Part shown: positions 9,745 to 47,860 of the stretch, piece by piece
Position numbering within the stretch: position 1 is the stretch's first letter
How the letters are laid out: every line of letters begins with the position of its first letter
Origin: Euglena gracilis
Lineage: Eukaryota
Reading direction: 5' to 3'
NCBI GenBank assembly: GCA_039621445.1
Contig: CP154954.1
Location: forward strand, 25,122,954 to 25,186,953
DNA: 64,000 nt
Notes under the pieces: model-generated
What the model saw: only the letters and a program-made list of their open reading frames with translations
Database searches by the model: none
Told to the model about the DNA's origin: nothing
Translations under genes and position numbers: made by a program

Positions 9745-9776
<32 letters not shown>

Positions 9777-9784
9777 TGTGTGTG

Positions 9785-9832
<48 letters not shown>

Positions 9833-9857
9833 TGTGTGTGTGTGTGTGCGTGCGTGC

Positions 9858-9895
<38 letters not shown>

Positions 9896-9900
9896 GTGTG
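9018..9900. repeat. Compound microsatellite: (TACA)n followed by (TG)n/(TGTTG)n/(TGCG)n
   Basis: Directly visible tandem repeats. Source of the long IHTY/VC pseudo-ORFs. Confidence 0.98.
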
Positions 9901-9989
9901 GTTGCGCAGGGACGCCACCAGGGTCTGGGCGGAGGAAGGGGGATGGGTCTGCTGGTGCACAGGAGGGGCGGCGGTGGGGCAGGGACCCT

Positions 9990-13793: not shown

Positions 13794-14011
13794 CAGGGCA
13801 GTACGGGAATCGGCCAAACAGCCAGGGTCATGGGTGGGGGGGTCGACCCCCCAAACACCTCCTCCCCTATTTCCGGGAGCACCAATTTTCGACCGCAATT
13901 TTTTTTCCCGGCGCGGAAGGCACTGGGGAAAATTTGTTAAAAAAATATGTGAGAATGCTGTGGTGGGTGGGGGGGTCAACCCCCCCAACCAGGCCTTCCC
14001 GTACAGCCCTG
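13794..14011. mobile_element. hAT-type MITE, family CAGGGCAGTACGGGAA
   Basis: TIR CAGGGCAGTACGGGAA / TTCCCGTACAGCCCTG. TSD TCAGGGCA/CCAGGGCC (6/8). Homologous to 36330 and 38787. Confidence 0.85.
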
Positions 14012-21984: not shown

Positions 21985-23825
21985 AAACCCACACACATAC
22001 CCACCCACACGAATGGAAATCCGCTACAAGGGTCGCAGGCCTTCCTCGGGGTAGCCTCCGAAATGCCCACCCCGGTTGGTGGGGCAGCGCTGCCCCCCTT
22101 GGGCCCAAGGAGAAGGTCTGGGCTGCGGTCCATCGAAACCTCCGGAGGCGGTCACCGTTTGTTCCTATGTTATTTGACGCACACCGTGTGTCATCGGCAC
22201 GTCCGATTACTGCATCTGGACAAGTGGGGAAGTATTTCAGGATGCCCGCGCCAAGTTGGTCGTCTCTGGTCAGAAAAATCATTTTGGAGGAGAATACCGC
22301 TGTCTATGTTATGTCCAGGTTAACACCTCCAACGTGCCATTGCCATAGTTCTTATTCGTGTGTTTCATGTGCCGTACTTTTTGACGGCAGAGTCTTGAAA
22401 TTCATAGGTAAGGTGACAGGCTACCTGGTTTGGAAAGGTTGGCTTTCAAATTTCTCCATAGGAAGTCCCTCTGCCCCCGCCTGGATGTGCATGCAACCCG
22501 ACCGCACCCCCACTGGCTTCTTTCACCAAGTTGCAGCCATCCCTCAATCTTTCTCGTTCCTTTTCCGCACCTTTCGTCCCAGGCACCCTTTCGTCCAACC
22601 TTGAAGGCCCTTTGTCGAGGGGTCCCTCATCAGCCCCCCTCCTTTTGGCCACCGCAGCCCCGCCATAGATCGTATTCCGCAACGCCTGTATTTGCCTCAG
22701 TCATCCCTCCCCCTAGCGCTTCGCTCTGATACGCGACGGCCCTCGCACCCCTGTTCCTCAGGCACCGTTTGAAGTTGAACTCCCCTCGGTCTGTTTCAGT
22801 TCCAGTTTTGATTACCTTTGTTTCACTCTGGCCCCAGTTGGGCGAAAAATTCAGGGGGGGGCTTAGGCAGCGCATCTCGCACCTAAGCTTTTTTTTTGGT
22901 CGGTGTGCGCATTTTCACACACGTCCAAATTTTTGACTTTGGCGCTGGCGTCACAAGGGTCGAGTGTGAGAGGGAGGAGGATTGGGCAAAAAAGAAATAA
23001 TTTTTGGCCCTGGCTGTCCTGGGAGTTACATGTTTTTTTTGTTTTTTTTTGTGGTCGGAATGACACAAACACCCCCAGACCTATCCCTCCAAAGTGAGAA
23101 AACACCGACAAAAACAGCAAAACCCCAGTACCGCCACCCCCCATTTCCTGTTTGACAACCGCCAGCGCCAGGTGGTGCTCTGGAGGGGGTGGCAGGTCCA
23201 CCCCTTGGCTTGCTTTTTTTTTTTGTAGTTTAGCAGCACGTTGTGGAGTTTTTGGAAGTTGGCTGCGAAAGGAGTGGAAGTGCACATGCCACATAAACAA
23301 TGGACTGTTCGAGAATTCTGCCACGGGGGGTTGATGACAGGGTTTGATATAAGGAGGGCGTACATGGTTTAGGTGGGGGGTGTCCCCCACCCCCCCCCCC
23401 CTCCTGGCCAGCAGGGGGGGGTCCGGACCACCCCCCCCCCCCCCCCGCCAGGGCCTGCCAGGGGGGTCCGGACCGACCCTGGGGGGTATCCCCCCCAAAA
23501 AGGGTCAATTTTATCCTCCAGCGCTTCGCGCCGATTTTTTTTTGTTGCATTTTTGGCACATTTTTGCCCAAAAAGTGCCCAAAATGGCACTTTTGGTCGT
23601 TTTGGGGGGTCAAAAATTTTCGGCCCGGCGCTTTGCGCCGGGCCGAAATTCAGTCACCCAGACCGCGCACCTGTTTAGGTAGGGCGGGGTGTCCCCCCAC
23701 CCTCCCCCTCCTGGCCCGCAGGGGGGGGGAGGGTGGGGACCGGACCACCCCCCCCCACCTGTCCTTATATCGAACCCTGGTTGATGAGGGGCATCCAGAA
23801 CACAGAAGGACTGCCACCAGTTTAC
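14030..23825 (-). CDS. Possible multi-exon minus-strand gene (fragments near 23150-23825, 22440-22810, 21580-21790, 18730-18850, 17790-17880, 16190-16320, 14510-14630, 14030-14150)
   Basis: Several protein-like open stretches on the - strand, e.g. PKTPQRAAKLQKKKASQGVDLPPPPEHHLALAVVKQE and EDFQQLSRNDAQETSIPNPWDLFLVNL. No recognisable domain and junctions not assembled. Confidence 0.3.
16821..16930. mobile_element. Minimal 110-bp MITE, CAGGGCAGTACGGGAA family
   Basis: CAGGGCAGTACGGGAA ... TTCCCATACAGCCCTG with the family GGGTCGACCCC motif. TSD degenerate. Confidence 0.7.
17900..18382. mobile_element. hAT-type MITE, family CAGGGGTTTTTTT, with internal T-rich expansion
   Basis: TIR CAGGGGTTTTTTTT / [33 protein letters not shown] (7/8). 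Homologous to 39370, 40756 and 42330. Confidence 0.9.
19617..19735. repeat. (TG)n microsatellite
   Basis: Direct observation. Confidence 0.95.
20978..21375. mobile_element. Tc1/mariner-type MITE (TA TSD)
   Basis: TA|CCTCCCCCCCCCTTGTCTAAGCACC ... GGTGCTTAGACAAGGGG...GGAGG|TA. Three internal copies of AAGCACCACCCCCCxGGTTCTTACCCAT. Confidence 0.88.
23338..23779. mobile_element. hAT-type MITE, family CAGGGTTCGATATAAGGA
   Basis: TIR CAGGGTTTGATATAAGGA / TCCTTATATCGAACCCTG. Perfect TSD GTTGATGA (23330-23337, 23780-23787). Close relative of 32285-32713. Confidence 0.93.
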
Positions 23826-28538: not shown

Positions 28539-29591
28539 ATGGCCAAGCTCCGGCTGTGCAGCGGCTGCGGCAAGGGGCGGCCCAAGTTCCAGTGCCCGAC
28601 CTGCAAGGCCGCCGGGGGCGACGAGGGCTTCTTCTGCACGCAGCGCGCGCCTGCGTCCGGCCGGCCCGGGCCGGGGCAACTGCGTTAGGGGTGGCCAAGG
28701 GCCCTCCTTTCTTCTGCGCTTTTCAGCGGCTCGAAATGGGATGGCGTTGCCTCATCCCTGAGCTCTTGATCTTCAACTTCAGTCACGTTTTCAATGTCAG
28801 TCACGGCTGGTTGGGCGACCTCCCCCCCCCACTCTCCCCTGGGAGGGGCCAGCAGGGGGTATTTTGCCAGTTGCACTATGCATTTTTTTTGCATAATTTG
28901 CTTTTTTTTGCACAATGTGAAACTTGCTAAAGTCGCATTTTTTGCATTTCTTTTTGCGTATTTTGCCTTTTCTATTTGGGGGCAATCGCACAGGCAAATT
29001 GCTCTACCACCAGACAACTAAAATTTGCATACTACACATTTTTGGGCCAATTTTTCACTAACAGCGTGTTGAGTATAAGTGCATCTCAGGAAACCAACCA
29101 TGTTATTTTTCAAGTTTGCACTACACTTTATTTTGGTGTCCTATGGATATACTATGCTACAATATGCATGCTATATGCTTGCATATGCTATGCAGCAAAT
29201 GCAAATTATAGATGCATATGCTGTGCACCCTGTTGCATAGCAAATAATGTTGGAAAAAATTGCCGGGAGGAGATGAAAATTCTAAGTCCTTTCCAGGAAA
29301 GTGTACAGCAGCTCCTAAGGAACGACTGCGTGCAACTTGCATTTTTCTTTTGCATTTGTTGCATTGCATATTTTGGGGTGCTTTTTTTGTTGCATGTTTT
29401 CCCCTGGCGGCCATGATACCCCGAAGCAGGGGTCCCAGGTTTGTTTTGTTTTCCCGGAGGGAACCCAAACCTGAATCTCGCCTCCCCCCCCCCGGGCTCC
29501 CCATCTACGCTTAGCCTCCACAGTCCACAGGGACGCAGGCGTGGAGGCGGCCTGCTTCAAGGAGCACTGGCCCGGCCACCGTGCCCTGCAC
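28539..29591 (+). CDS. Exons 1-2 encoding a C6H2 zinc finger: [49 protein letters not shown]
   Basis: C-x2-C...QCPTC...FFCxxxCF...W..H...H pattern matches the zf-C6H2 N-terminal finger of methionine aminopeptidase 1. Confidence 0.88.
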
Positions 29592-32500
29592 ACCTCAGCT
29601 GGGGGGCGGCCTTTGTCCGAGGGACGCGCCGGCCAGTCCGCCTTCTTCCACGTGGGAGCCGGCGGGGCCCCCGCTGATGTCCAAGCGACGCCGGCACAAA
29701 CGTTGCTCAGTGTTGCCCGTTCCCCGGGGTCAGCCTGGGCAGCCCCCCACGCCGGCGGCCGCTGCCCCTGCGGACGCCGCCGCGGACGCCACACAGCGTG
29801 CGGCGGCGGCGGCGGCAGCGGCGGCGGCGAAGGAGGCGCAGCGGGCAGCGCTGCGGCAGGCGGCGGAGGCGAAGGCGCGCCAGGCGAAGCGCGCGGCGGA
29901 CGCGGCGCAGCTCACCGCGGACATTACTGCGGCGCTGGCAGGTGTGTGCCATCTTTCCCCCCCCCCCCCCCCCCGGCGCGGAACCAACTTCAATATTTGC
30001 GGTGAACGATGGCCAGACTGAAGGCCAATCTTGTGATTGGGCGGGGGAGTACTGGTTGTTACGTTGTGAGAAGTGCCGGTCCTGGGCAACGGCCCTCACC
30101 AAGCCTTGGGCACCAGATCACTGGGGCCGCACCCAAGGTGAACAGGCAAGGCCGGTGAAAACGGTCAAAGTCCGAATGCACCTGGCGGGGGGTTGCGGAT
30201 TAGACTGTCGGTTCCTCCTCGGGTGGCCCAGTGGGGGGCTACCTTCGGAGATGCCCTGGAGGATCAAGAGAGGGATATTCAGGAACGACGGAGAAGAAAG
30301 AAGAATGGTCCACCAAGCCGACACCACCAGTCCAAGCATCCACTGCCCGGGGTCTAAAAGCTGTTATGCAAAGGATAAGGATGTTTGGAGGCATGGAACG
30401 ATGGTTTTCCTGTTTGTTCGTGGGGACACTTCGTTTTTCTTTTGGAAATAGACCCCTCCTTCTCACCCCCCCATCCCCTGCCCACTGCCCACGTTGGACC
30501 ATTGTATTTTCATTTGGCGGGTTTGGCGGTACTTCTTGTGCAACTGCAGGGTCAGATCCCCGAGCAGGGGGGGGGGGATTGTGCTTTTGGCTCACTGAAG
30601 GAAACGAAATGAAAAGGGTGCAAATGTTTGTAACAGCGGGGGGGGGGGTGGCAAAATGCCCCAGAATCAAAAATAAAAATATCTCTTGAATTGCCCCATC
30701 TCCCCACCTCCATATCCCCCTCACCCCATGCCACTCCCCACAACCCCAAAGCAAATTGTCAATCCAATGTGGCACAAAACGACGGAAGAGGTAAATAATT
30801 TAAAATAATGGCACAATTTGGAGTGAAAAGAGAATTCCTGTGCTTGAATCCGACAAAGAAATCTGACAGGTCAGGCACTCCTCCAGAAAAAGGTTATTGA
30901 ACATTTTGAAGCTTTGGAACATTTATGCACGGCCAAGGCTGCATAGAGGTGGAGGTGGAAGTAGCAGTTTTTCAACTTCCTCCATCTCTATGCCACCTCG
31001 ATGTCAAAATGCCAACGAAAATGTCTCACAAAGTATAATTTATGACAAGAAAAGGCCCCCGGGCGCTTGGCCCAGATTGAAGGAAAGGCCAGGGGGCACC
31101 CTTGTGGGGACCAGGTTGCATGGTAAAAAAATGTGGCGGGCATGTGCAAGAAGCCGAAGGCCAGCTTGAGGGAGGCCAAGTTTGCATGTAAGGAGGAGGG
31201 GGGCCAAGCGCCGTGGGGGGGGGGGCGGAGGGGAGGTACGTAATGTGTGCCGTGCCAAGGCTGCGGAGAGGCAGAGGGAGAGGTCAAAGTCCTCTACCTC
31301 TATGTTAGCCAGCTCGACCTCTACCTCCACCTCCATGTCACCGCTATTTCCATAAAACATCAAAAGCGCTTGTAAGAGGCACCAGATGCGTCATTTTTAG
31401 CAAGTTTCCATCAAAATACATCATTAACAGTTTGGGAATGAGCAAAAATACCTGGTTTGGTGGTTTCAAAAGGTTTCACAGAGATATGCGACAAAAATGA
31501 CCAAATCATGAAAATTGTCATGTGGTTTGGGGCGGGTATGAGCCCCCATGAGCACGTGAGCATGCCGCATATGAGCGCCTGGGCACACCTCACGCCTACC
31601 ACCAATGCCTGTCCCTAATACGCATTGCGGGCGAAGGTTACGCACGTGGTCCGCCCCCTCCCTCGCCCCGCCGGACCCCAACGCAGGGCAGAGCCACGTC
31701 CTCGTCGCCGGCCCCGCGGAGCCGTCCCCCGCCTCCCTCGCCGCCGCCGCCCAGCTCGCCCACCAAACCCTGCAGGCCGGGGCGGCGGTGCTGATCCTCT
31801 GTGCGGCCCCTCAGCCAGGGGGGACGGCGGGGGCACCCGGCGCGGGGCCCCGGCCGAGAATGCCCCCGGCGGTGGTCTGTCCGCAGCGGGCCTCAAGCAG
31901 TGCGGGCGCAGTGGTGGCTCTGGTGCGGGGCGGGACGGACCGAACGGACAACCCGAGGGACCCTGCGATGGGGCCTTCCATGGGGCCAATACCCCCCTCC
32001 TTGTCATGTTGTGGTGGTTTCCCTTGGTTTTGTTTGTGACGCCTCGGTGGCCCCCAGCCCACACCCCTCCGGCAACCCTGCCCTCCTGTGGTTGGGTCAC
32101 CAGCCCCCCTCAGAATAGAGCTCAGGTGGTGCGGGCCCATCCCCCCCTCCTGTTTGTCTCGAGGCTTCGATTCCTTCGTTAAACACGTCCTTTGCGCCGC
32201 CAAAACTCGACCTCAGCAGGTGCTGCAGTGGGTGGGGGGTCCGACCACAACGCTCCTTCCCGTCGGGCCCCCAACCCCTGGGCCCAGGGTTCGATATAAG
32301 GAGGGCGTACATGGTTTAGGTGGGGGGGTGTCCCCCCCCCCCCCCCCCCTCCTGGCCCGCAGGGGGGGGTCCGGACCACCCCCCACCCCCACCTGCAAGG
32401 GGGGTCCGGACCGACCCTCGGGGGGTACCCGGGACCCCCCCCAAAAAGGGTAAATTTTTTCCTCCGGCGCTTTGCGCCGATTTTTTTTGCATTTTTGGCC

Positions 32501-35500
32501 AATTTTTGCCCAAAAAGTGCCCAAAATGGCACTTTTGGTCGTTTTGGGGGGTCAAAATTTTTCGGCCCGGCGCTTTGCGCCGGGCCGAAAATCGGTCACC
32601 CTGACCGCGCGACTGTTTAGTGGGGGGGGGGTGTCCCCCCGCCCCCCCCCCCTCCTGGCCCGCAGGGGGGGGGGTCCGGACCCCCCCCCCTCCTCTCCTT
32701 ATATCGAACCCTGCCTGGGCCCCCCCGTGTACACTGCGGCTGTTTTTTTCGGTGCCGTTATCCTTTCTTCGGGCCTGGCTGTTTTCGTCTCTGGCCCTTT
32801 TTGCCTGTGTGCGTTGGGGTGCCCCCCCCTTCTTGTCTGTTTGTGGCCGACACTGACTTCGCCTCTGGCCCAGTTCGTGTGGTGAGTGGCCAGGGACCCC
32901 TGACCCCAGTGCCCGGGTGTTGCTCCCCCTGGCCAGGCGTGCAACTCTGCCCCCCCCCCCCCCCCCCCTTGCGGCCGCCCCTCTGCGGCCACCTCGCCGT
33001 GGCGGCGTACGCGGCGGTGCGGCGGCGGGCGGCGCCGGGGCTGCAGCCGTTCCGGGCGGGGCACGTGTTCGTCGGGGCGAACCCCTCCCTGCCCCTGCGC
33101 AAGGTTCGCCCCCCCCCGCCCCCCCTTGATGCTGGCCCCGCCCCCTCGCTTCAGCGGTGTGGTGTAGTGTGGGGCGGTGTCTGTTGGCACACGAGCCAGG
33201 CCCCTGGTGGGGGAGGGAACCCCTGCAGAGCTCCTGGCCACGCCAGTTGTTTTGTAAACAAATCCATGGCAGCACAGCTGCCATCCAGCCCTGACATCTT
33301 CTTTTCGACGTCGTTTGGCGGCTGGCCACCAGATGTTCTGAGGGCTGAAGTTGGGTCAACAATACCCCAACATGGTCCACGAATCGACGACTGGACAATT
33401 TCTGTTTGAAATGTGTGCCTTTTCATTTTTGAAACCCCCAAGGGCTTCTACGGCACTCCGGAACTGCCGAGCTGACCTTTCTTTGTTGGTGGGCAAGCAC
33501 AGGGGTTGTGGTTCCTGTGCGATGGTGTGCCTCCCACCTCCGGCTGTCCCTCAGGTCGCTGCGGAGTGCCAGCTGCTGGTGGCGGTCCCCGCTGCCTTCC
33601 AAGCCCACGCACCAACTTGCTCCCGGAGCAATGCAATGCGTGCAAGGCAGTCGTTTATGTTTTGGGGGGGGGGAGGAATCTGTGGGTTCTTCAAAGTTTC
33701 GGCCCACCGTATTCTTGGAGAACTGCAGCGGATGGAAACAAAGCTCATTTTTAAATTTAAAATTGGACATCTGTTCAATTTTTTTGTTGGACACTTTTTT
33801 CACCCTCCAGCAAAGAGCGCAAAGATCCATCTGGGGTGAAGAATGACAACGGTGCTTTCAGTAATATCCTTCAAACCGTTTTGCACATTGTGTTTTTTTC
33901 ATGGAAATTGGGAGAGGTCGAATGGGATAATTTTGCTCTTTGAACCAAATTTTCTTGCTTCTAAGGTGTTTCGAATTTTTGTATGTCTTAATTTGGTTCT
34001 TTCGCCTTAGATTGTGTACTTTTTAAAAAAAAGAACGGTTGAACTCAAATTGGCGAATGCATCACCCGAAACCGCTGAAAGAGGCTCTGACCTCAATCAC
34101 CCCCAAGTTTTTGAAATTGGTCACCCAGAGGGGTGGGGTTACCATCTGTATAAAACACGTAAATGGCCGAAGTCCACATCATCACTTCTTCCAGGCTTTT
34201 TTAATACATTTGAAGGATGGCCACACTGTGGATACTCTTTTTTTCCACCCGGCCTTCCGCACACCGTTTCGGCGGAGGCCCTGGCGTCTCAGGCCGACCC
34301 CTCCCCTGTTGGTGGGTGCCCGCCGCCCTCTCCCCCAAGCCCCGGCAGCCCTACGCGGCGGTCATCCTCCTCGGGGCGGGGCTGCAGCCCCACGAGTACA
34401 GCAAGGCTGCCCTGCCCGACAGCCAGGCCCCCGCCGCCCCCACCAGGCGAGGCTCAATATGAAATTTTGCATTCAACGGTGAGAACTTCTGGCGACCGAA
34501 AACTGGAGGTAGGAGGGGGTCCCCCCCAGTTTTGGACGGGTCCCCCCACCCCCCCTCCGAGACTCCCACGCAAGCCTGGGGGCCAAGGCGGGAAGCAGGT
34601 GCCTCAATGTCGAGCCCCTGGCGCGTCCAGGGCGGGCTCTCACTGAAGTCATTGGGACTGGACCACATCATGGGATGTCCTGTCCGGGGCTGCTCGGGGT
34701 TGGGGGGGGGGCAGATGTTTCAGTGGCCCAGGCTTGCCCTGGGGCCCTGCCGCCGCCCGGTACATGGTCGCCACCGCCGCCCCCGAGGGCGTGCCCATGC
34801 TGCAGCCCTGCCAGGCCCTGAAGGGTCTCCAGCAGGTGGCCCCACCCTGGAATGCTACACCCGCCCCCAATTGGACGGATAGCCCCCCCCCTCCAAGACA
34901 GGGAGTTTCTCAAGCTGGAGGGACCTAGCCCAGAGGTGCCAACCAACACCTTTTTTCCTGCCGGCAGTTCCCAGCCAGCCTGCGGAACCCCCCACCCCAG
35001 GGTCTGCTGCAATCAAGTTGTGGCCGGCCTGGAACCCCCCCCCCGGTCACCCCTTCAAAAAAACTACTGAGGTACAACAGCACTGTCAGAGATCAGTAAG
35101 ATATGCTCTCCTTTGACCACACGCAACTACCCTCTTTCCAGAGCAGTCTGCCTTGGTGCTGGTTGGGCAGTTATCAACATGTGATCATGAAACCATTTGA
35201 ACCTCTTCACGGTTCATTTTAACGTCAAAATTGACTGGAAAACTTTTTTATATTTGAGTATATTTTTTGCATTAATTGCATTTGTCTAATTTCACGTGTA
35301 TTTTTATTATCATTATAATTGAAGCTGATTTTCATCTGATACATCTGAAATGGCGTATCTTGAAATGGAAATCGTTGACCAAGACTTATCGAGTCCGTTT
35401 TGATGGTAGGTTTGTAAGTGTGGAGTGTGTCAGACAATTGCTGAAGGGTTTGAGTACCCCCCCCCCCCGGGGGGGCTGAAGCTAGTCCAAATTGGCCAGT

Positions 35501-37041
35501 GGAAATCCTAGTGGACCCCCTGGGTGTTCCGGTAGCAGGCTGGCCAGTGGCAGTGACTGGCGTGAAGCGCCGAATTTTTTTCCTGGAACCCCAAGACTTG
35601 TCCCCAAAAATGCCCGTTTTGACCATTTTGGGATTTTTATTTTTGCCAAAAATACATCGACCTCCTTTCCACCTCGTCGCGCAGCGCTGGAGGTTTTTTT
35701 TTTTCCAGTTGTGGGACCAGGCTTCTTTTTACAAGTGTGGCTAAAAGTTACGGAAGACAAACATTACGGCAAAAAAAATTCCGAAAGTCAGAAGATCCCC
35801 CTCCCCCTCCTGGGTGGAGGGGGATGGGTAGTTGGGTCTGCGGCCGGCCCCCCGGGGGAGTCCCGGCTGGAGGCCCGGGTATGGGTTTCAGCACAAAGCC
35901 GAAAGTTTTCTGGGAAATGCCCTCAGACGGCCTGATTTTGGGGGGGTCCCGCACCGGGCTGGATGGAGGGGACCACCCCTCCCCCTGGGGGGTCTTACAA
36001 AGAAGCCTGGGGAACCCCTGGACCCATGGTCCAGCTAGTGACTTTTTTCCAGTGTCCAGCAAAATGGCTGGCCAGTCCCCCCCCCCCCCGGGTCCTTGAG
36101 CAATGGCACGATGTACGTGTCACAAGAAGAGGTGTGTAAAAAGGCGAAAAGGGTCCTTTTTGCTGGAACAGTTTGATGAGCATGAGCAGGCTATTTCATT
36201 TTTTTTTGAAGAAAAAACCGGTGAATTTACAATGCCCGCCAATTTTTCGGTGCACGTGCGTTCTTGTCCTTCTGTTTTATCACCTTTTCATCTGGGGCAG
36301 GGAATTTCTTCAGGACCCTGGGGAAGGTGCAGGGCAGGACGGGAATCGGCCAAACAGCCAGGGTGGTGGGTGGGGGGGTCGACCCCCAAGAAATTTCCCG
36401 CCGCCTTCGGTGCCCGGAAAAATTGTGAAACAAATCTGCGAAAATGCTGTGGGTGGGTGGGGGGGGTCGACCACCCCAGCAGGCTTTTCCTGTACAGCCC
36501 TGGGCAGGGGGTATCCAGCCGGTCGGAAAAAGGGCTGGAAGGGGATGCAGTCCAGCTTCCGGGCTGCACCCAGCGGGTATCCAAAAATTGGCAGAACAGC
36601 CCAAATTCAGTTGGGTTGAGATATTTGAGCCATTGTTTTCAGGCAAACTCCAAATCCTCAAACACCCCCCCTTTTCACCACTTTTGACACCCTTTTTGAA
36701 TAGTTTTGGCACTTTGGGCAGAAAATCATTTCCCTCACCTCTGGGTCAAAAACCTCATTGGTGATGGGCTGTGGGGGCAGTCTCAGGGAGATTGGGGGGT
36801 AGTTTTGGGTAGGGGGAATGTGTGATTGGTGGTGCAATTTCTTCCTAAATAAATACAATTTTTGGATGAGCGCTGGGATGAGCGTTGGGATGAGTTTTGG
36901 ATGATCCCTCCCCACCCCGCAGGAACCGGCCGAGGACGACCCCAGTTCCCCAGCGCCGCTGTACGACCAGTGCGATGACTACCTGACCCACCTGCTGCTG
37001 CAGACCTTGCACCCCGGCCGGGCAGCAGAGCATATCCTGAA

Positions 37042-37072
<31 letters not shown>

Positions 37073-40000
37073 GCGTGTCTGTGTGTGTGTACATGTGTGT
37101 GTATGTGTGCGTGTGTGTGTGCGTGTCTGTGTGTACGTGTGTGTACGTGTTTGTGTGTGTGCATGTGTGTGTACGTGTGTGTACGTGTCTGTGTGTTTAC
37201 GTGTGTGTACGTGTGTATGTACATGTGTGTGTATGTGTGTGTATGTGTGTGTGCGTGTGTGTACGTGTGTGTGTGTGTGTGTACGTGTGTGTACGTGTCT
37301 GTGTGTGTACATGTGTGTACATGTTTGTCTGTGTGTAAGTGCGCCTGTGTATGTGTGCGCCTGCTTCATGTTTGCGTGTGTGTAGGGCCACGTTTCAGAT
37401 CCCAGAAAATTTGGAACCCTGACTTTTTGGTTGTCTGAGGCTCCGCGGAGCCTCCATATCTGGTTGGTCACCTGAGGTTCCACAGAGGTTCCGCAGAGCC
37501 TCCTCCTGGTAACCAATTTTTTTTTTGACAACCACCGTTTGTTTTTTTGGAATTAATCAGAAAATGAAGATATTTTGAAGGAGTAGGGCTGGGGTTGAGA
37601 TTCCACACAGTTGAACCTTTCCCGCTGATATATTCGGTCGTCATATTTGCCTTTCCGCGGTGCTCAGCAAACACAAATAGTCGTCCTCTTAAAACAGGGA
37701 TGCCGAGCGAGGGTTCCTGCCTGTGTCTTATCCAAGTTGGGGTCGGTGGTACCCTGTATGAGCAATTCCCAAATTCCCAAATTGTCACGAGAGAAGAACG
37801 ACAATTTTATCGAAAAAAGCTGAGCTTTAGGAGTCCGCCGCGGAGCCTGATTACCTGGAGGCTCCCCAGCGCCTCCGCAGAGGCTTCCAAATTATTCGCA
37901 AGGCACAATTCCACTCTGCAGGAGACCCCCCCCCCCGGATTGCTGCGGTGCGGCTGTCTTCCGGCCTTTCCGTTCACGATGGGCGGAGGAGCTGGTCGCC
38001 CCCCCCCTCCCCAGGCCATCCCGCCGCTCAGCCAGCCGCAGGTGCGGCAGTCCGTGCGGTGCGTCGTGGAGGCGATGGATCCCGATGGCCGGGGCCCCCT
38101 CCCCTCCCCATCAGTCCACCCCCCCCCACGGGGGCCGGGGTTCGGAGTTGTGCTGCCCCGAGGCCGGGCCTTGCCGCGGGCCCTTCCGTGTGGCCAAGGC
38201 TGGGAGATGGCTCTGTTCCGACGTGGAGAACGGGGCCCATGCGTTGGCACTGCGCAGCGGTCGACCTTTTCCGCACACTTCTGTCTTAGGGCAAAAAGCA
38301 ACGATGTTTGAAGCGGTGTAAGCCTTGTGAGGGGAGACCACCCAAAGGGGGCGGGAAGGGCCGGTGAACATTCCCCTGGTGTCCATTGCTAGAAATAGAA
38401 ACATTTAGGGGAGGTACCTTTGGACTTGACCCAGGCCCCAAATACCATTGTTTTAGTTGCTGAAAGGGCAAAGTATTTCATCTGATGCAGTGAACTGCAG
38501 AACTGCGCAGATTTTGATTTATATTAATATTTCACGTGTCAAAATCAGAAGCCTGTCTTTCCCTTTTTTGGCTTCGGCAATCCGGAAATTTATGAATTGA
38601 CGTTGAATGACACTGGGTGTTGCCATGTTGTTTTTTTTGGTCTTAATTCTGCATGTTTTTTTTTTCTAGATCGGCCCTGGGGGAGAAAACTCTTGTCGGG
38701 GGGTTCGTGGGGCAGGCCCCGGATGATCGAGCAGTTTCCGTTGGTGCCACCGCCCAGTCCCAGGGCAGCCCCCCTTCCCCGAGGGGCAGGGCAGAATGGG
38801 AATCGGCCAAACAGCCAGGGTGGTGGGTGGGGGGTCTCTGGGTCGACCCCTCCCCCCACCACCTCTTCCCATATTTATGGGAGCACCAATCTTTGGACCC
38901 CAAAACTTTTTCCCGGCGCTTTCGGCACCAGGTGCATTTTGGACCCATTTTGGCACCAAAATTTGGTCCAGTTTCTTTGACCTTCGTTTTTTTTACCCCC
39001 CTCCTAAAACTGCCAATTTTTGAACCTGAAACCTGAGTTTTTTTTGTGCAAAAGAATGTGGTTCTCCATCAAAAACCATGTATTTTATGTTCATTTTTCA
39101 AAAAAATCAAAAATTTACCCCGGCCAAAACCCTCGTTTCCCCAAAATTGGTGAAAATGCTGTGGTGGGTGGGCGGGGTCGACCCCCCACCTCCCAGGTGA
39201 GGGGGGGGGGTCGCCCCCCCCCCCCCCAGGCCTTCCTGTGCTGCCCTGCCGAGGGGCCACTGCCCAGCCGGCGGGTCGGGCGCTGCCGCCGTCGCTGCTG
39301 GTCAGCCTCTGCAGCGCGGCGCCGAAGCCCAAGTTCGGGAAGTGCTCCGCCGTCGTGATGGGTGTCGCCCAGAGGTTTTTTTTTAGTCGTGGACCCCCGG
39401 GGGGGGGGGGCGGGGGGGGGAGGGGGGGGTGCGGTGGGTGCGCCCGGCCGAGCCCCCCCCCCCCCCCGGGGGCCACCCCCCAGGGGGGAGTGGGATTTGC
39501 TTTTCGACGCCGAAGGCGCCGAACATTTTTATTGAAAAGGTGCTATTTTTGGAATTTTTCGCAATTTTTGAGTGGGTCCCCCGGGACCCCCCCCCCCAGG
39601 GGGTGGGTGGGGGACCCCCCCTCCCCCCGGGTCTTTAAAAAAAAAACCCCTGGCGTTGCCACGGCGCTGCGGTCGGCGCTGCAGGCGCACCCCGTGCTGC
39701 CCGGGCGGCCCCCCCGCAAGGTGTGGGCCGTGGAGGGGGGGCGGTGGTGGTGCTCAACGTGTGGTCCACCCCTCGCCGTTGGCTCTTGTTTGAGCCTGGC
39801 TTGACTGTCCACTATTTATTTATATGTATTTTTAATTTGTTTTACAAATGCCTTGACTCGAATATCTTGAATACCTTTCACAATCTAAATTTTGATTTTG
39901 TTTTTTATTATTTTATTGTTTTGTTTTTGTATCGAAAAGCCTTTTATTTAATATTAAGTCCCCAAATACAGAATCGAATAGCATTCCATTGCTGTCAGTT

Positions 40001-43000
40001 CCTCATTTTGAGGTACAGTGGCCTGACACATTAAATGGGCGGCGAATTAATGCCACTGACAAGCACACCGGATTCGTGCTGGTGGCAGGGTAAACGGTAA
40101 GTGGCCGTCTGTCTCCCACCACTGTCACACCGAACCCCGAACCCCCCCCCCCCACCCAAGGAGAGGGCTTTCCCCTCGCACCCCACAGGAGAGGGGACCT
40201 TTCTTGAAAAGAATTCCCGCTACCATCGTCTTTAAATGAAGCAACAAAGAAAAAATACTAAAATAAACAATAAAAACAATTTAATGAATTGATTAAATAA
40301 ATTAATCATCGATAAAGAAATTACACTCATATATTATTATAATAATAAATAATAACTTAATAGCAATAAAAGGGGAGCACTCTCAAGATCGTACCCCCAC
40401 TTCAACATCCGCTCTGAATTCCAAGCAACGGGGTTCAGCGTGTGTCAACCCCCCCCCTCGCAGGGGCGGTGGTACTTCCACGCCGCGGTGGCCCATGCCC
40501 ACCCCCACGTGGAGCCGGAGGTGATGGACGACATCGCCCAGGCCCTGGACGTCCGGTGGCTCGTGAAGCCGCCGGTGCGGGAGCCCATCCTGGTCAAGTG
40601 TGCTCCCTCCCCCCCGCACACACCCGGATTTGCTTTTTTTTTGAATTCCCCATTTCTCCCCTTTTTTGGCAACTCCTTCTTTTCCCGTCTTTTCCGTTCT
40701 TTATATCTTCCCCCTCCACCCCCCTCCGGCACAGCGTCGTACTCAGCGTCGGCACCAGGGGTTTTTTTTTAGTCTCGCACCCCCGGGGAGGGGGGGGGGC
40801 AGGGTGGGTGGGTCTGGCCGAGCCCCCCTGGGGGGTCCCCTCAGGGGAGTGGGATATACTTTTTTGAAATTTTTTGAAAAAGTCCCTTTTTTAGCACTTT
40901 TCGCGATACTTTGGCCATTTTTGGGGAAAGGTGAGTGGGTCCCCCGCCCCCCCTGGGGTGGCCCCCAGGGGGTGGGTGGGTGGGTGGGTGGGTGGGGGGG
41001 ACCCCCCTCCCCCTCGGTCTAAAAAAACCCCTGGTCGGCCCAGTGTCGTTGAATGCACAGCATTTTTTGTTGCACGCACCCCATGCCAGTGTGCCAATGC
41101 CACTTTTCCGGACGTCACCCATTTCCCATTCAAGCACCACCAACGGCACCCTCCTGCACCCGTCCCTGCCGTTTTGGACCGGGGCGGGCGTGTCACGCTT
41201 CTCGCGCCCCGTTTCTTTCCCACCCCGGCCACGCTGCCTCCGCCTCGCCTTCCGTTGCCTCACCGCCCCACACAGGTACGGGCACCACGCGGACCTGTAC
41301 GAGTGCGTCCACGCAGTGCTGCAGCACGCCCTGCGCTACCTCAGCGTCGGGGGCCACCCCAAGGACCGGGACGCGGGGGCCCGGGACCCGCTCGGCGGGC
41401 GGTCCCGCGGGGCGGGCGGTCGTCGGGTCCGCCGCTGCCTGTTGGGCGTGATGGGTGGGCTCCCACCACACATCTGCTGTTGGACATCCTCTCACCAAAC
41501 GCCACACTCACCAAATGCCAGGAAGGCTGGTGGGTATGGCATGCGGTCAGCAGGAGAGGGGCGGGGCACAAACACTATTTGCGTTTCTGTATTTGTTTTT
41601 TGTGTGTTTTTTTTGCCAATTTACAATTTTTTGTGAATTTTTCAAATTTGCAAATTTTTTGAGTCTTTTTTTTTTTGAGGGTCCCCCCTGTGGAGCAGGA
41701 GGGGGATGTTGGACTGAGCTTCTAACCAACACGGCTGCTGGTGTGCACTGTGTCTGGAGGGGGAGGGGGACGAGGGGCTCCCGCCAGAGACCTGCACAAT
41801 GGACAGACCAGCGCACTGCTGGAGCAGCTGTGCTGGCCGGAGCTGCTGGCCCCGCTGCTGGGGCCGCACAAGAACCTGCTGAAGCAAGAGGCGAGGTGTG
41901 GCCGCTCGCCCCCCCCCCCCCAGAGCCCCCCCCCCACCCCCAACGGCCTATGACTTGGAAACACGAGCTTGAAGTGGAGCCCCACCCCGGAGATGCTTCT
42001 CTTCACTGCTGCAAGTAACACTCGGAGTGAGGTGCATTCCATTGCTTTAATTTTTTTTGAAAGTGGGAAGTTATTCCCTCACCCCTGGGGTCAGAATGCA
42101 ATGGTGTGGTCAGGGGTGTACACCAATCTGCTTGTTTTGGGCATTGTTTGCACTTGCAAAAAAGTGCGCATATTGATGTGCTTGATATTTGTTTGACTTC
42201 TTCTGCTTGTGTAAATGTGTGAAATACGTTTTTCGACATGTGTGCCGCTGGTCCTGAGTTTGAGCTGAGGGTTGAGGCTTGTTTCCCACCGAACGGCCAC
42301 CATGCTTTTCTGTTGGTATGGGTTGGCTTCAGGGGTTTTTTTAGTCGTGGACCCCCCGGGGGGGAGGGGGGGGTTGGGTGGGTGGGTCCGGCCGAGCCCC
42401 CCCCCCCCCCCAGGGGAGTCCCCCCGGAGGGGGGTGGGATATACTTTTCGGCGCCGAAGGCGCCGAAAAAGTGCTAGTTTTAGCACTTTTCGCGATTTTT
42501 GGCCATTTTTTTGTGGGCTTCCTGGGTGGCTTCGTCCTGCAGTCCATTTTGTGGATATCTCTCTTTACTCCCGCAGCGTGTACTACCCGCAGTGCTCGCG
42601 GACTGGGGACAAATTCAACGATGGCACACTGCGTGTCTTCGCCTCGTACTGGCGAGTGCGACAAATCCCCAACCGCCTGTGCATGTTTCCGCTCTGTTCT
42701 GAGTCCGAAATGGTCACAGGGGGAACCTTTCTTGCTCTCAGTTTCACCCCACATTGAAACGGGAAGGCACCATGGATTTCCACCCAGGAGCTCTCCTGGC
42801 GGTCCCTTCAGACTCGCGACTGAAAACCTTCCATCTGGAGTGCGCATGCATGTTAACTGGAGCCCTTTGTGTGTCTCCCTGTGCTAATTGGCTGCCATTC
42901 CTCCTGGCAGAGGCTTTCACCGTTGCTTTTCTTCCCTGGGGAATGGTCTTTTGGGTTACTGGTCCCTCTTCCCAGCCCTCTCACCAGCTCAACCTCACAA

Positions 43001-46000
43001 GGGACAGAAAGGCGCCAGGCTCGGGCTCGTCAGGCTCAGACCAAGTTCCCTGACAGCACCACCTTCCCGGTGTGCACGCAGAAGGCCGAGCAGCGGAAAG
43101 TGCTGCCCATGCTTTCGCCCTCTGCCATATGGCCACCACTGGTTACTTGGCCGAAGTGGATTGAGGCGTCAAATCCAAGTCTTCTCACGGATTAACAATC
43201 GGTCGTCGTTTTCAGTTTCCTCTCCTCAGGGCTGTATGGGACTCCCCGAAACCGTATGGGCAGTGGATGGGGGAGTGTCGACCCTCCACCTCCATCCTGG
43301 TGGGTTGGGGGGGTTGGGGGGTTTTGACCCCCTCCAGAACTTCCAGGGAGTCGAGTCAAAAGTTTCTGTGCGCTATGGTGGATCCCACCAGGCCTTCATG
43401 TGCAGCCCTGTTCTCCCTTTGTACGGTAGGGAAACTAAATAGTGGGACGGTCCAGGGAAACTAAATAGTGGGACACCCCAAAAAAATGCTGATCCCCCGG
43501 AGACCGTCAGCGAGTTGCAAAAGGGTTTTCAAATTGTTGCAATATCAGGAGGCTTCAATGTGTGGCATGTATAAGGTGTAGCCTAGGGCCGTGGGGGGCC
43601 TGTCAGTAACGGGTGGGACCAACATCAGCGTCGAGCACAGCAGCAAGGCAGCTGGGCATCGACGCGTGTATACCTCGAATTTGTTCGGGAGAAATGTCAG
43701 CAAAAGCACGCTGCAGAGCTGCCCAAAGTTTGTTTCGGTTAGGGAAAACACATCCTTCCAGCTTTGTGAGCAAGAAGCACGACGTCCTGGCTGCAATGCT
43801 GTGAAGATGCTGGATGACGGGTCCTGCACAGGCTTCTGCTTGGAGATAGCGGATCTCCTCGGTTTGCCAGGCGTAGGAGTGGGGAGGTCTCAGCGGTCCA
43901 TTGCGAATGATGCATTTTCCAAGCTCCCATTGAAAACCGTTCCCCCTGTGAACTGTGAGGCACAGGCTTAGCAAATGAGAGGAAACGATGGGCTGGGGCA
44001 GATGCAGCTCTCCTAGATAAGAGGTGGATTGAACACCCTGCCCCCCTCCCCCCATGCAAGGCGAAGAAACGAGGCCTGTTTGCGGCCCGCAATGAGCCCG
44101 GATCTCAACCCGATCGAGCACCTGTGGGTGCTTGTGCTCGCAAAGCTCGAAGGATGTGTTTTCCCTAACCGAAACAAACTTTGGGCAGCTCTGCAGCGTG
44201 CTTTTGCTGACATTTCTCCCGAACAAATTCGAGGTATACACGCGTCGATGCCCAGCTGCCTTGCTGCTGTGCTCGACGCCGATGTTGGTCCCACCCGTTA
44301 CTGACAGGCCCCCCACGGCCCTAGGCCATCCATTGGATGGTACTGGGTACACCTTACACATGCCACACATTGAAGCCTCCTGGTATTGCAACAATTTGAA
44401 AACCCTTTGCAACTCGCTGACGGTCTCCGGGGATCAGCATTTTTTTGGGGTGTCCCACTATTTAGTTTCCCTGCTGTAACTGTTTAGTTCAGATGAGTAA
44501 ATTGCATGGGACGCAACCACATAGAATGTTGCAGTTCAAAAGCCTGGCCAAACGCCGTTAAGGGTGACCCAGGTTTCATTGCAGCTCAACCTCACATTGA
44601 GCTGCAGAGCTTTCGGTCACAAAAAACCTGCAAATCTACCCCTTATTCTGCATCCTGCTGTGGTTCCCCCTTTTGGGGGGGCTTGGGGGCCCATTGGGGG
44701 TCAATTTGGAGTTACCCTGAAACTTGGAGCTTCTCCAGGAATGGGTACCTGCTCGGGGGGGGGGTAGGCACCTATTTGGCCCGACCCCCCCTCGGGGTCA
44801 CCAACAAAATCATCAATGGGCCGCCCTCCCAAGGTCCTCATAAGACTCTCCGTGGGCCGGGCGTGGCGGGGATCGACCAGGCCATCCAGGAGGTGCTGCT
44901 CATGATGCCCGCCGGGGACGGCCTCATGATGGCGGGGCAGCTGGGGGCCCAGCTGGGCGGCTGGCAGGCGTTCTGCAAGTGTGGCTGCGGGGGGCATGGG
45001 GGCGTGCTGGCGGCCATGCAACTCGGGGCCATGGCGACAACCGAGTGTTCGCTTTGCGTGCGCAAGGGGGGGAGAGTCTGGGGGAACTCCTTTCTGGCCG
45101 TAGGGAGGGGATGTGGATCAAAAGTTATTTCCTCCTCAGCCAGCCGGTTGGGCCATTGCCAATTTGCCAAAAGTGTCTGAAAACAGGATTTTGCGTTTTT
45201 TTGAAATCCCCTTTTTTGTGCTGGTTTTGCTATTACGGGATTGACCCACCAACACTTTCCCCTCCCCTCACTAAATACCCTCCTCGGAGATTCGGTTTGC
45301 CTGAATGGCAGAATTCGCGTAGCCCGTGAACTTTGGGAGAGACATTGGGCAACCATTGTCTTCCACGTTATTGTCTGACTGTCAGTGTTAGTCAGGGTCC
45401 CAAGTTAAAGTTAGCACGTGCCTGTTGGCAAGTGATGAGACAATGCCACAGGGCTACATACAATGTGTGCGCATGCAAACGGCCCACTTGAGGGTGGCGG
45501 CGGCACAAATTCGACTGCATGCAAGGACCGCCCTGTGGAAATAATGAGTCCACCCACAGATGCTGAAACGGTATAACGGTATCTGTTTTTGCGGTTATGG
45601 CAAGGCTGGGGAGAAGGTTTGCAGACTTTTGGATCTCTGGCCTAGGCCGTCAGGGAGACCAGGTAGCACCAACTGGCAGTGGCTGCGCTGAAGGCGTTGC
45701 TTTCGAGGCTCCCAGCATTTCGAAACGGCGCTGCAATTCACCTGAGCGGCAGGCAAATTGGCCACTTTGGGGGGACGTTGTGTCTGTCTGCTCTCATCTT
45801 GCGCAGCAAGTACGCTGTGGATTTGGCACCGTCGTTGAGAATGTTCTTCCAGAAGTTCCCCGAGCACTTCACACTGTGTGACCCGGGGACGGCGGTGGTG
45901 GATCAGTTTTGTCTGAGACGGCCACAGTGGGTCGTGTTCCCCGTCCTCACCGACACCCACACCCACCCACCCACCCAAACTCACCCACTGCTTGTTGCAT

Positions 46001-46876
46001 GAGACCTCTGTTTTCACCTTTTTTTTGGAAACATATGCTCCGGCCCTCGATCCAGCTTCTCTCGCCATCAACAACCTGAACCAAATGGGCAAGGTTAGGG
46101 TTGGGGCCAGGGCTATACTCATCCTATTAAAGGCGTTGGCTGATCCTAACCCTAATCCTAGCCACCGGAAAGGGTGGCTCAGATCGCGCAGCGGCCACCA
46201 CCCGGCGAGGGGGTCCCGCGGTCTGGCCGTCCCCGGCTGGGGAGGATGAGCGGCTCGTGAAGCGGACGGTGGCAGCGCCGGGCCACGTGCAGGTCGTGAT
46301 GCCGACCGGTCGGGCGGTGTCCGGGCTGGACGGCGACGACGAGGACGGGCAGAAGAAGAAGAAGCCTGCCGAGGCTGGAGGCTGCGGGGGTAGGGTGTCG
46401 ACAAGCGTTTGGCCGAGGCTGAACAGGAAGGCGTGGCCGACGGAGTTCTTGGCTTCTGGCGCGGCCCAGGCACATTTTACCACGTGCCCCCCGGATCAGA
46501 CGTTGGTGTCTGGGTGCCTTGGAGTGGCTGCCCATTGGACAGCCACCCCAGTGGACTCTAGACACATCCAGCCTACTTTGGGCTCAAGCACAGCACTGCA
46601 CAAGTGTACCACACAATCCGCATTTTTTGCCATTGGCGGCCGCCGTGGGGTGGGGGGGGGCAACGCCCCTTTGGCCGCCGTGGCCCCGGCCTCCCAGCGT
46701 GCCGACCCGGCGGGGGCGGATGGCGAAGGTGAAGCAGGTCCGCATGGAGGTGCTCGCCCGCCGCGTGGCCCGCAAGACGAAGATCTCCAAGCTGAAGAAG
46801 AAAAAAACCGCCCCGCCCCGGCCGTGGCTTGCCATGGTCTATGGCTCAAACCAGAAATTCATTTAACCCCTGTCTG

Positions 46877-46909
<33 letters not shown>

Positions 46910-46968
46910 GGTGGGTGGGTGTGTGTGGGTGTGTGGGTGTGTGGGTGTGGGGGTGTGGGTGTGGGTGT

Positions 46969-47041
<73 letters not shown>

Positions 47042-47860
47042 TGTGAGTGGGTGGGTGGGTGGGTGGGTGTGTGGGTGTGTCAGTGTGTGCAGTTTGTGGG
47101 TGGTTTTCATGGGCTGGAACACCCCTCCCCCCAAAGGGACTGGGGCATCTGGTGTCGGTCCGACTTGGCTGAAGGCCGGCCTGAAAACCTTCTCCCAGTG
47201 TGCTTTGACCAATTCTCGAGAGCCTTTGGTTTGGTAGGTAGGTCGTCTCCCCTTCTTCCGGGTAAATGTGTGGGTTTCAGAGAAAATAAATGCCCAGGGG
47301 TTGCTTTTTTTCACGTTTAAACAAAAGTTGTTGGCTTTTCTCCTGTCTTTCCTCCCCGCCCCGCCTTGCGTAATTTGGAATTGGAATTATTTTGATTAAC
47401 TTCCGTTTTTTTTCCTTCCGCCTTTCCTGTTCACTTTTTCTATAAAGGTTCGATTTTTTCGCCAATAACCAACCCATGCGTTTTTAAAAAATGCGGACAG
47501 CGCACACCCGGGCATTCATTCATTTGGATGCCGGGGTGTGACACACGATGGAGTCGAGTGGAAACCGCATTCTTTACGGAGGGTGCCCCACCCCCGTCAC
47601 TCTCCAAGTCAGGTCTGTCTCGCCCGCCAAGCCGAGGCCGGGGCCCAACCCGCAAGAGGGGCCGCGGGCTCATGCCCCGCCGCAAGGTGTTCTGACCGGC
47701 GCCCGTGCACCCGCGGTAGCCTGTGCCACCCCATCCGTCCCCCTTGCCCACCCCCTGAGCCGTGCTGGGGCCCACACTGGCCGCTGCAGGGAACTCACGC
47801 TGCGTGGTGTTGGCTGGGGCGTAGCATAAGAAAATTTGACCCCACCCCCCGGGGTCCAGC
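28539..47860 (+). CDS. Multi-exon gene: zf-C6H2 (MetAP1/MYND-like zinc finger) protein with possible LOTUS/OST-HTH-like domain and basic C-terminus. 3' end unresolved (may reach ~49110).
   Basis: Exons: 28539-28642, 29549-29598, 29753-29941, 31687-31800, 31887-31922, 32164-32231, ~32970-33103, ~34340-34430, ~34745-34830, 36923-37042, 38015-38058, 38716-38743, 39268-39366, 39658-39720, 40464-40597, 40735-~40752, 41276-41401, 41788-41895, 42577-42655, ~43057-43099, ~44855-44978, 45807-45879, 46242-46361, 46720-~46810, ~47827-. Many GT-AG junctions are phase-compatible. ATG is preceded by a pyrimidine tract and AG (28529-28530). Confidence 0.8.
28643..29548 (+). other. Nonconventional (non-GT-AG) stem-loop intron
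   Basis: 5' gcg-CGCGCCTGCGTCC pairs with 3' GGACGCAGGCGTG-gaggc|G. Removal rebuilds the zinc-finger CTQAC spacing. Confidence 0.82.
28853..29406. mobile_element. Degenerate hAT-type element nested in intron 1
   Basis: CAGGGG...CCCCTG ends. TSD GGGGCCAG/GCGGCCAT (6/8). Internal TTGCAT-rich short repeats. Confidence 0.6.
32285..32713. mobile_element. hAT-type MITE, family CAGGGTTCGATATAAGGA (intronic)
   Basis: 19-bp perfect TIR CAGGGTTCGATATAAGGAG. Perfect TSD CCTGGGCC (32277-32284, 32714-32721). Confidence 0.95.
35435..36105. mobile_element. Degenerate MITE (family of 56106-56545) with a second MITE nested at 35718-36009
   Basis: Shares GCTAGTCCAAAT...GAAGCGCCGAATTTTT...TTTTCCAGTGTC with 56106-56545. 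Inner element ends are CAGGCTTCTTT / AAAGAAGCCTG. Confidence 0.75.
36330..36502. mobile_element. hAT-type MITE, family CAGGGCAGTACGGGAA
   Basis: CAGGGCAGGACGGGAA ... TTCCTGTACAGCCCTG. TSD GGAAGGTG/GGCAGGGG (6/8). Confidence 0.85.
37043..37383. repeat. Degenerate (TG)n / GTGTGTAC microsatellite starting at a GT splice donor
   Basis: AAG|gtgtgtgt directly follows exon 36923-37042. Confidence 0.92.
38787..39248. mobile_element. hAT-type MITE, family CAGGGCAGTACGGGAA (long form)
   Basis: CAGGGCAG...CTGCCCTG. Perfect TSD CCGAGGGG (38779-38786, 39249-39256). Confidence 0.93.
39370..39652 (+). mobile_element. hAT-type MITE inserted in a coding exon; predicted nonconventional intron 39367-39657
   Basis: CAGAGGTTTTTTTTT ... 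[35 protein letters not shown]. Removal gives ...[20 protein letters not shown]. Confidence 0.88.
40756..41033. mobile_element. hAT-type MITE, family CAGGGGTTTTTTT, at an exon boundary
   Basis: TIR CAGGGGTTTTTTT / AAAAAAACCCCTG. TSD GTCGGCAC/GTCGGCCC (7/8). Confidence 0.92.
42330..42524. mobile_element. Internally deleted MITE, family CAGGGGTTTTTTT (inside GT-AG intron 41896-42576)
   Basis: Intact left end, right end reduced to CCTG. TSD GTTGGCTT/GGTGGCTT (7/8). Confidence 0.82.
43227..43410. mobile_element. Degenerate MITE related to the CAGGGCAGTACGGGAA family
   Basis: CAGGGCTGTATG ... CATGTGCAGCCCTG ends. GTCGACCC motif. TSD poor. Confidence 0.6.
43424..44476. mobile_element. Tc1-derived fold-back element with ~320-bp inverted arms
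   Basis: TA on both sides (43422-43423, 44477-44478). Arms 43453-43772 and 44135-44473 are near-perfect reverse complements. Confidence 0.93.
44083..44304 (+). pseudogene. Tc1 transposase C-terminal fragment
   Basis: [14 protein letters not shown]...[19 protein letters not shown] matches the Tc1 SPDLNPIE motif and SMPxR...GxTxY tail. Confidence 0.92.
45880..46241 (+). other. Nonconventional stem-loop intron
   Basis: gac-CCGGGGACGGC ... GCCGTCCCCGG-ctggg|G, a perfect 11-bp stem. Joins FPEHFTLC to EDERLVKR in frame. Confidence 0.8.
46362..46719 (+). other. Nonconventional stem-loop intron
   Basis: aag-CCTGCCG ... CGGCGGG-ggcgg|A plus inner stem GCTGGAGGCTGCGGGG / CCCCGGCCTCCCAGC. Joins DGQKKK to MAKVKQVR in frame. 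Confidence 0.72.
46876..47088. repeat. (TG)n/(GGGT)n microsatellite
   Basis: Direct observation. Confidence 0.95.

Follow-up and report, generated by a model that had tools for sequence, protein, structure and literature searches.

The closest described counterparts of the introns considered here are the nonconventional (NC) introns of euglenids, known from three studies (Milanowski 2014, PMC3935182; Milanowski 2016, PMC4770533; Nomura 2025, PMC12501133). Among 55 NC introns, positions +4..+6 and -8..-6 pair in essentially all cases, CAG/CTG is found in 33 of the 55 and is absent in 22, and a purine stands at the intron start in 51 and after the intron in all 55 (PMC4770533). Knock-in mutagenesis yielded the code 5'-N3CDG-/-CH'GN5-6|R, which covers 61.2% of the NC introns of E. 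agilis and leaves 38.8% outside (PMC12501133). In the EgGSL2 knock-in of the same work, single CAG or CTG substitutions abolished splicing, CTG-CAG alone worked among the second-position variants that preserved pairing, and a synthetic intron without pairing did not restore the phenotype. Here, we analysed a window of 64,000 nt of Euglena gracilis contig CP154954.1 (all coordinates count from the window start), in which introns 1, 20 and 21 of a single 23-exon gene are, with a probability of about 0.85, ordinary euglenid NC introns of the known off-consensus class.

Compared with introns that follow the code of Nomura 2025, these three have the same non-GT-AG borders, 3-nt spacer at the 5' end, 5-nt spacer at the 3' end, downstream purine and helix continuing past the triplet; they are unlike them in carrying CGC/GTG, CCG/CGG and GAG/CTC, in the G:C closing pair of intron 21 and in their long helices (13, 11 and 8 bp). 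With the NC introns of Milanowski 2014 and 2016 that lack CAG/CTG they share the kept pairing, the varying sequence and the purines at the intron and exon starts; Milanowski 2016 compared homologous introns across strains, whereas the examples here are new and come from another gene. Introner elements (review PMC11282704) are similar in that an element bearing terminal inverted repeats (TIRs) and target-site duplications (TSDs) is inserted in an exon and precisely removed from the RNA, but their removal is spliceosomal, at GT-AG-like sites, while the signal here is a helix.

The gene was delimited on the + strand at 28539..47695 from protein mapping, a Pfam domain and RNA joints, and it has 23 exons and 22 introns, a 705-amino-acid product and a zf-C6H2/MYND-like finger at the N-terminus; all gene features below lie on this strand. 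The transcript-derived protein P0001 (eukprot:EG_transcript_4041, 705 amino acids) maps to 28539-47692 as 23 collinear exons, with no mismatch around 21 of the 22 junctions and a single one at the junction of intron 7. Because of this collinearity, an earlier note on this DNA, which had placed three non-GT-AG junctions in one gene, was right on that point. Pfam PF15801 (zf-C6H2) matched residues 8-50 over profile positions 4-46 of 47 with an E-value of 1.5e-12. P0001 deviates from the window in a few residues, one of them at the junction of intron 7. The transcript therefore derives from a different allele, a paralogue or another strain, either of this organism or of one very close to it, and the name EG_transcript_4041 makes Euglena gracilis or a close relative its probable source. 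Eight of the 22 introns are GT-AG introns and 14 are NC introns.

Two contig sets, both presumed to represent RNA, and two runs of raw RNA-seq reads, together drawn from four studies, were aligned to 37400-46870, a stretch chosen to avoid the GT-rich repeats at 37043-37357 and 46877-47089; the raw-read sample was about 5%, and 15 of 24 joints were listed. For introns 10-21 these joints were drawn from contigs of two runs and raw reads of two runs, and they reproduced every intron that the protein predicted in the stretch. Loose RNA ends additionally fixed two splice sites, the intron 9 acceptor and, at 46814, the intron 22 donor, from which the RNA runs on into the exon at 47647. Read-level junction evidence is therefore confined to introns 10-21 and these two ends.

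Three in-frame junctions had been claimed, and two of them hold. For intron 1 (28643..29548, 906 nt, able to slide by +1), the junction 28642|29549 restores ...FFCTQ|ACFKEHW... of P0001 and leaves the zf-C6H2 domain unbroken across residue 35|36; just two junction positions fit P0001, and both yield the identical mRNA. For intron 20 (45880..46241, 362 nt, sliding by +2), the joint 45879>46242 was present in all four runs (2 contigs; 11+16 and 3 raw reads), and in run X21 the read depth was about 0.6 inside the intron against about 10-16 in the flanking exon bins, which indicates that the intron is well removed. The GT donor near 45876 joined to 46241, which had been named as an alternative, was not among the listed RNA joints. 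The following exon, 46242-46361, matches P0001 at 100% identity.

The third junction, 46361|46720, which would bound an intron at 46362..46719, is contradicted by P0001 and by all four runs, which give 46367>46699 (contigs; 22+14 and 4 raw reads). The true third intron is thus intron 21 at 46368..46698 (331 nt), or the same interval shifted one nucleotide to the right. The 15 of 24 joints listed do not include 46361|46720, which may nevertheless occur in a rare isoform. Its 7-bp stem was one of 11 pairs of at least 7 bp among 4941 local donor/acceptor pairs, and the junction was a false positive from a short-stem search in GC-rich sequence. This case calls for caution, since in GC-rich DNA a 7-bp stem in the expected geometry arose at a junction with neither the listed RNA joints nor the transcript-derived protein behind it. 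Intron 22 (46815-47646) and a small intron directly after exon 2 had also been overlooked.

GT-AG alternatives at the three junctions were ruled out, as GT/GC-AG ends occur in no allowed register. The allowed registers are GC..GC or CG..CG for intron 1 and GA..GG, AC..GG or CC..GA for intron 20, and those giving the observed mRNA for intron 21 are GC..GC and CC..CG. A further register of intron 21, TG..AG, fits the protein only and would place C instead of T at the junction.

The terminal helices of the three introns begin at +4/-6. In intron 1, the 5' arm of 13 nt (28646..28658) pairs with the 3' arm (29531..29543) with one G:U pair, followed by 5 unpaired nucleotides and the exon G. The helix of intron 20 is perfect over 11 bp (arms 45883..45893 and 46226..46236), and that of intron 21 has 8 bp with one G:U pair (arms 46371..46378, where +4 is G, and 46686..46693, where -6 is C). 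Of the 7-13 bp stems described earlier, those of 13 bp and 11 bp are real, and the 7-bp stem has to be replaced by the 8-bp helix of the true intron 21. An independent repeat finder recovered the Watson-Crick cores of the helices of intron 1 (28648-28658 in its 5' arm) and intron 20. Folding of the introns agreed with the proposed geometry of 3 and 5 unpaired nucleotides before a purine: both the minimum free energy and the centroid folds of introns 1, 20 and 21 open with 3 and end with 5 unpaired nucleotides, and each intron is followed by an exon G. In none of the three can the helix be extended outward, and therefore exactly 3 and 5 nt are single-stranded. The z-scores of the whole-intron folds were -3.28 for intron 1, -2.65 for intron 20 and -1.33 for intron 21.

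To compare all introns of the gene, the best stem at offsets 3/5 or 3/6 was taken across the registers permitted by the mRNA, and the random null was drawn from position pairs in the gene with three registers and two geometries. The best stems of the 14 NC introns were 13, 7, 8, 3, 4, 6, 5, 3, 5, 9, 7, 11, 8 and 6 bp, and those of the eight GT-AG introns were 3, 1, 3, 1, 3, 2, 1 and 3 bp (one-sided Mann-Whitney, p = 0.00019). Stems of at least 4 bp were found in 12 of the 14 NC introns and in none of the eight GT-AG introns (Fisher, p = 0.00014), and the end-to-end duplex energies of the two classes also differed (p = 0.00028). In introns 6 and 12, which have 3 bp each, helices of 7 bp and 11 bp follow past one mismatch. 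Random position pairs reached at least 8 bp in 0.64%, at least 11 bp in 0.12% and at least 13 bp in 0.065% of cases.

Several observations weigh against the assignment of the three introns to the NC class in the 3/5 register. Sliding by 1-4 nt is possible in every one of the 14 NC introns, and for this reason the register, which was chosen from the allowed ones, is not fixable from RNA; 3/5 is allowed, not proven. Introns 2, 6 and 10 fit 3/6 and not 3/5, and in introns 2, 10, 11, 18 and 22 the helix can be extended outward by 1-3 pairs. Even mismatched intron ends form stable duplexes in DNA as GC-rich as this (mean -16.3 kcal/mol), and by energy alone intron 1 falls in the 4% tail, intron 20 in the 1.7% tail and intron 21 in the 0.2% tail. 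Introns 1-8 are based solely on P0001. NC introns of euglenids leave the RNA as full-length circles, later than the conventional introns; no back-splice joint of such a circle was among the 15 of 24 joints listed, in a read sample of about 5% from libraries not designed for circular RNA. Finally, the D of the published code excludes C, and CCG/CGG should therefore fail; if the code (PMC12501133) were absolute, introns 20 and 22 would not be spliceable by the NC pathway.

The triplets at +4..+6/-8..-6 are CGC/GTG in intron 1, CCG/CGG in intron 20 and GAG/CTC in intron 21, so that CAG/CTG is missing in all three real introns, as had been stated. The pairing of C at +4 with G at -6 was correctly described for introns 1 and 20, and in intron 21 it is reversed to G:C. 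Likewise, the stems are unrelated in sequence as proposed, the third triplet being GAG/CTC and not the CCT/GGG that had been cited. Relative to CDG/CH'G, intron 1 departs at +6/-8, intron 20 has C at +5, and intron 21 departs at +4/-6. Six of the 14 NC introns are on-code: CAG/CTG is present in introns 4, 7, 11 and 12, CGG/CCG in intron 15 and CTG/CAG in intron 17. The other eight are off-code. Intron 22 (46815..47646) has the same triplets as intron 20, with a 6-bp helix at 3/5 that can be extended outward to 9 bp, as judged from the loose end at 46814, the protein mapping and an offset grid. A purine was found at the intron start and at the downstream exon start in 14 of 14 NC introns. The first three intron nucleotides are GCC in seven of the 14 (introns 6, 10, 12, 15, 18, 21 and 22); a preference for certain target sites, or a weak signal, might lie behind this.

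The suggestion that the splicing machinery reads geometry rather than sequence clashes with the knock-in data summarised above (PMC12501133). It is possible that long GC-rich helices offset the missing motif, which would reconcile the splicing of intron 20 with those data; the off-code introns did not differ significantly from the on-code introns (8 vs 6) in stem length (longer stems, p = 0.13) or duplex strength (stronger duplexes, p = 0.28). Introns 20 and 21 add natural members verified by RNA to a known class. Intron 20, with CCG/CGG, is efficiently spliced though the published code excludes this combination (PMC12501133 may itself include this or other off-code motifs in its Datasets S7-S8 and Figs S10-S12), and intron 21 is used in RNA with a reversed G:C closing pair. 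Such introns bear on the question whether the NC machinery reads a sequence motif or just a helix and its distances, and they are natural test cases of whether helix strength can stand in for the CAG/CTG motif.

Two further observations were made inside the introns discussed above. The core of intron 1 (28870-29400) is AT-rich with many TTGCAT-like words, lies between GC-rich intron ends and has internal inverted repeats such as the pair 29183-29216/29338-29371; a nested insertion could explain it. P0002, a 153-amino-acid protein from a Logan contig (window 46250-46730), reads through intron 21, with small differences from the window inside the intron and the same residues across both helix arms; its source is either a retained intron or genomic DNA.

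The window contains three families (A, B and C) of MITEs (miniature inverted-repeat transposable elements) with termini CAGGG...CCCTG and nine complete copies, whose 8-nt flanks match at 5-8 of 8 positions in all nine. The families were found by repeat comparison confined to the 64-kb window. Family A has 14-nt TIRs, CAGGGGTTTTTTTT/AAAAAAAACCCCTG, and lengths of 278-483 bp, with copies at 39370-39652, 40756-41033 and 17900-18382 and a partial copy from 42330; NC intron 12 is one of these copies, the GT-AG introns 14 and 16 enclose two more, and the remaining one is upstream of the gene. The 8-nt flanks of the three complete copies match at 6/8, 7/8 and 7/8, while flank lengths of 6, 7, 9 and 10 match poorly. 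The series of the earlier note starts from a fresh MITE, and such an anchor does exist in this gene: intron 12 (39367..39657, joint 39366>39658, on-code CAG/CTG) consists of 3 nt, the family A copy 39370-39652 (CAGGGG...CCCCTG, with 8-nt flanking repeats) and 5 nt. This copy is 68-81% identical to its sister copies.

Family B starts with CAGGGTTCGATATAAGGAG (CAGGGTT) and has a perfect TIR of 19 bp; its two copies, 32285-32713 (nested in NC intron 4) and 23338-23779, are 86% identical to each other and have perfect duplications (8/8 and 8/8), CCTGGGCC and GTTGATGA. Family C starts with CAGGGCAGTACGGGAA and has the terminus CAGGGCAG...GCCCTG; its copies at 13794-14011, 16821-16930, 36330-36502 and 38787-39248 have 8-nt flanks matching at 6/8, 5/8, 6/8 and 8/8, respectively. 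In the intron 11 copy there is an insert of 315 nt (38835-39149) that is absent from the other copies, and one X2 contig joins 38834 to 39150, a joint that probably stems from another genomic copy.

For intron 12 two RNA joints were observed, 39366>39658 in the 3/5 register and 39360>39652. They are synonymous with unlike codons (GGT GTC vs GGC GTT), and both occur in raw reads and one in each contig set. The joint 39360>39652 could be a second splice register; alternatively, it could stem from another gene copy (allele or paralogue), perhaps from an empty site that lacks the MITE.

hAT-type MITEs such as Ac/Ds have 8-bp TSDs and CAGGG-type termini. Families A, B and C share the CAGGG...CCCTG ends and the 8-nt duplications, and are putatively hAT-like on these features; no hAT transposase was found, no search aimed at one having been made. 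Introns 1, 20 and 21 are unlike such elements in having neither these termini nor a TSD. In the literature searched, no paper linking hAT elements or 8-bp TSDs to the NC introns of Euglena was found.

From the literature, the NC pathway would use the terminal helix as a ruler, cutting 3 nt before its 5' strand and 5-6 nt after its 3' strand, ahead of a purine. Since 3+5 = 8, the nucleotides removed with an NC intron equal one TSD copy. The measure of such a ruler would then equal the 8-bp TSD of the CAGGG...CCCTG MITEs, and therefore a new exonic insertion would be removed with exactly one TSD copy, restoring the mRNA. Under this proposal CAG/CTG would be mainly a transposon fingerprint, natural introns with long GC-rich helices, such as introns 1, 20 and 21, would be efficiently spliced in its absence, and helix strength could replace the motif that a short-stem reporter intron needs. 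We put it forward tentatively, as an idea that is somewhat more apt to be wrong than right. The gene is informative in this respect, as it shows one MITE copy as an NC intron beside sister copies in ordinary introns, all with 8-nt duplications that equal the 3+5 nt removed.

How introns 1, 20 and 21 arose is a separate question from their class. In the earlier note they were placed in an age series, in which insertions of CAG...CTG MITEs with a TSD lost the TSD and altered CAG/CTG by compensatory changes while selection kept the helix and the 3+5 spacing. The idea has been published: kept pairing and CAG/CTG as a decaying fingerprint with compensatory change are already in Milanowski 2016 (PMC4770533), and the MITE origin was proposed by Milanowski 2014 (PMC3935182) and taken up again by a 2024 review and by the discussion of the 2025 paper (PMC12501133). 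Both the observation and the inference of the earlier note are thus restatements of published ideas with new examples. In the window the three MITE families with 8-nt duplications exist, a family A copy with 3+5 flanking nucleotides is exactly intron 12, and the termini of intron 20 (CCGGGG...CCCCGG) are one compensatory pair (+5/-7) from CAGGGG...CCCCTG of family A.

TSDs were evaluated by comparing 8-nt flanks, namely 5 exon and 3 intron nucleotides against 5 intron and 3 exon nucleotides, with a null mean of about 2.1 of 8 matches and a probability of about 3.7% for at least 5 of 8. The three real introns have no TSD, as claimed (2/8 for intron 1, 3/8 for intron 20 and 1/8 for intron 21). 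Taken together they show no TSD-like signal (6 of 24 positions, p = 0.63), while the on-code NC introns keep one (25 of 48 positions vs a null of 26%, p = 0.00013). This difference and the termini of intron 20 are hints that favour decay. The age series nevertheless remains doubtful. Apart from low-complexity runs, introns 1, 20 and 21 are similar to no repeat of the 64-kb window, two or three compensatory pair changes would be needed in introns 1 and 21, and the absence of a TSD is equally expected if none ever existed. Even the supposedly fresh anchor, intron 12, is as far from its sister copies as the identities given above.

An independent origin of the off-code introns, which would have come from other sources and been adopted by the NC pathway for a helix in the right register, is likewise an unlikely account as it stands. 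Possible sources are TIR elements with other termini (CAC/CGC...GTG of introns 1, 6 and 18; CCGG of introns 20 and 22) or double-strand-break fill-in, and such repair was proposed for an NC intron that had been gained recently and has 8-nt direct repeats (PMC4770533). From intron to intron the arms are unrelated, but each forms a good inverted repeat (11-14 nt); introns 1 and 18 have CACGCC in common in their 3' arms (reverse complement), and the TSD-like matches are at chance level. No second copy of the arms or intron bodies was found in the window, so that no family is shown, and the exact 3/5 register of all three introns would have to arise or be selected separately each time.

The remaining explanation, chance complementarity in GC-rich DNA with removal by a spliceosome tolerant of odd splice sites, could draw on the false third junction with its 7-bp stem in the expected geometry (11 of 4941 local pairs reach at least 7 bp) and on the stability of mismatched intron ends, but it is highly improbable, as all 14 NC introns have an in-register helix while no GT-AG intron (n = 8) exceeds 3 bp, stems as long as those of introns 1 and 20 occur at random at the 0.065% and 0.12% given above, GT/GC-AG ends are lacking in every allowed register of introns 1, 20 and 21, and the synthetic intron without pairing did not restore the phenotype (PMC12501133). 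Assignment of introns 1, 20 and 21 to the known off-consensus class of euglenid NC introns is thus the reading that we prefer.

Other features of the window were recorded along with these introns. After intron 11 (38251-39292), some reads (8 in X21) have A instead of G as the first downstream exon base, both being purines, and the variant looks like an allele. Intron 18 contains an inverted duplication of about 340 nt with 91% identity (43453-43780 and 44128-44473). Within the same intron, the open reading frame (ORF) 44017-44304 has a match to DDE_3 below threshold (E = 0.0017, 18.7 bits vs a cut-off of 28.6), which suggests a putative transposase remnant; a Pfam scan of the 276-amino-acid ORF at 43603-44433 on the - strand gave no match. 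Long imperfect GT-rich microsatellites were found at 37043-37357, 46877-47089, 9410-9907 and 19602-19735, of which the first has its start precisely at the intron 9 GT donor, while the second sits in intron 22.

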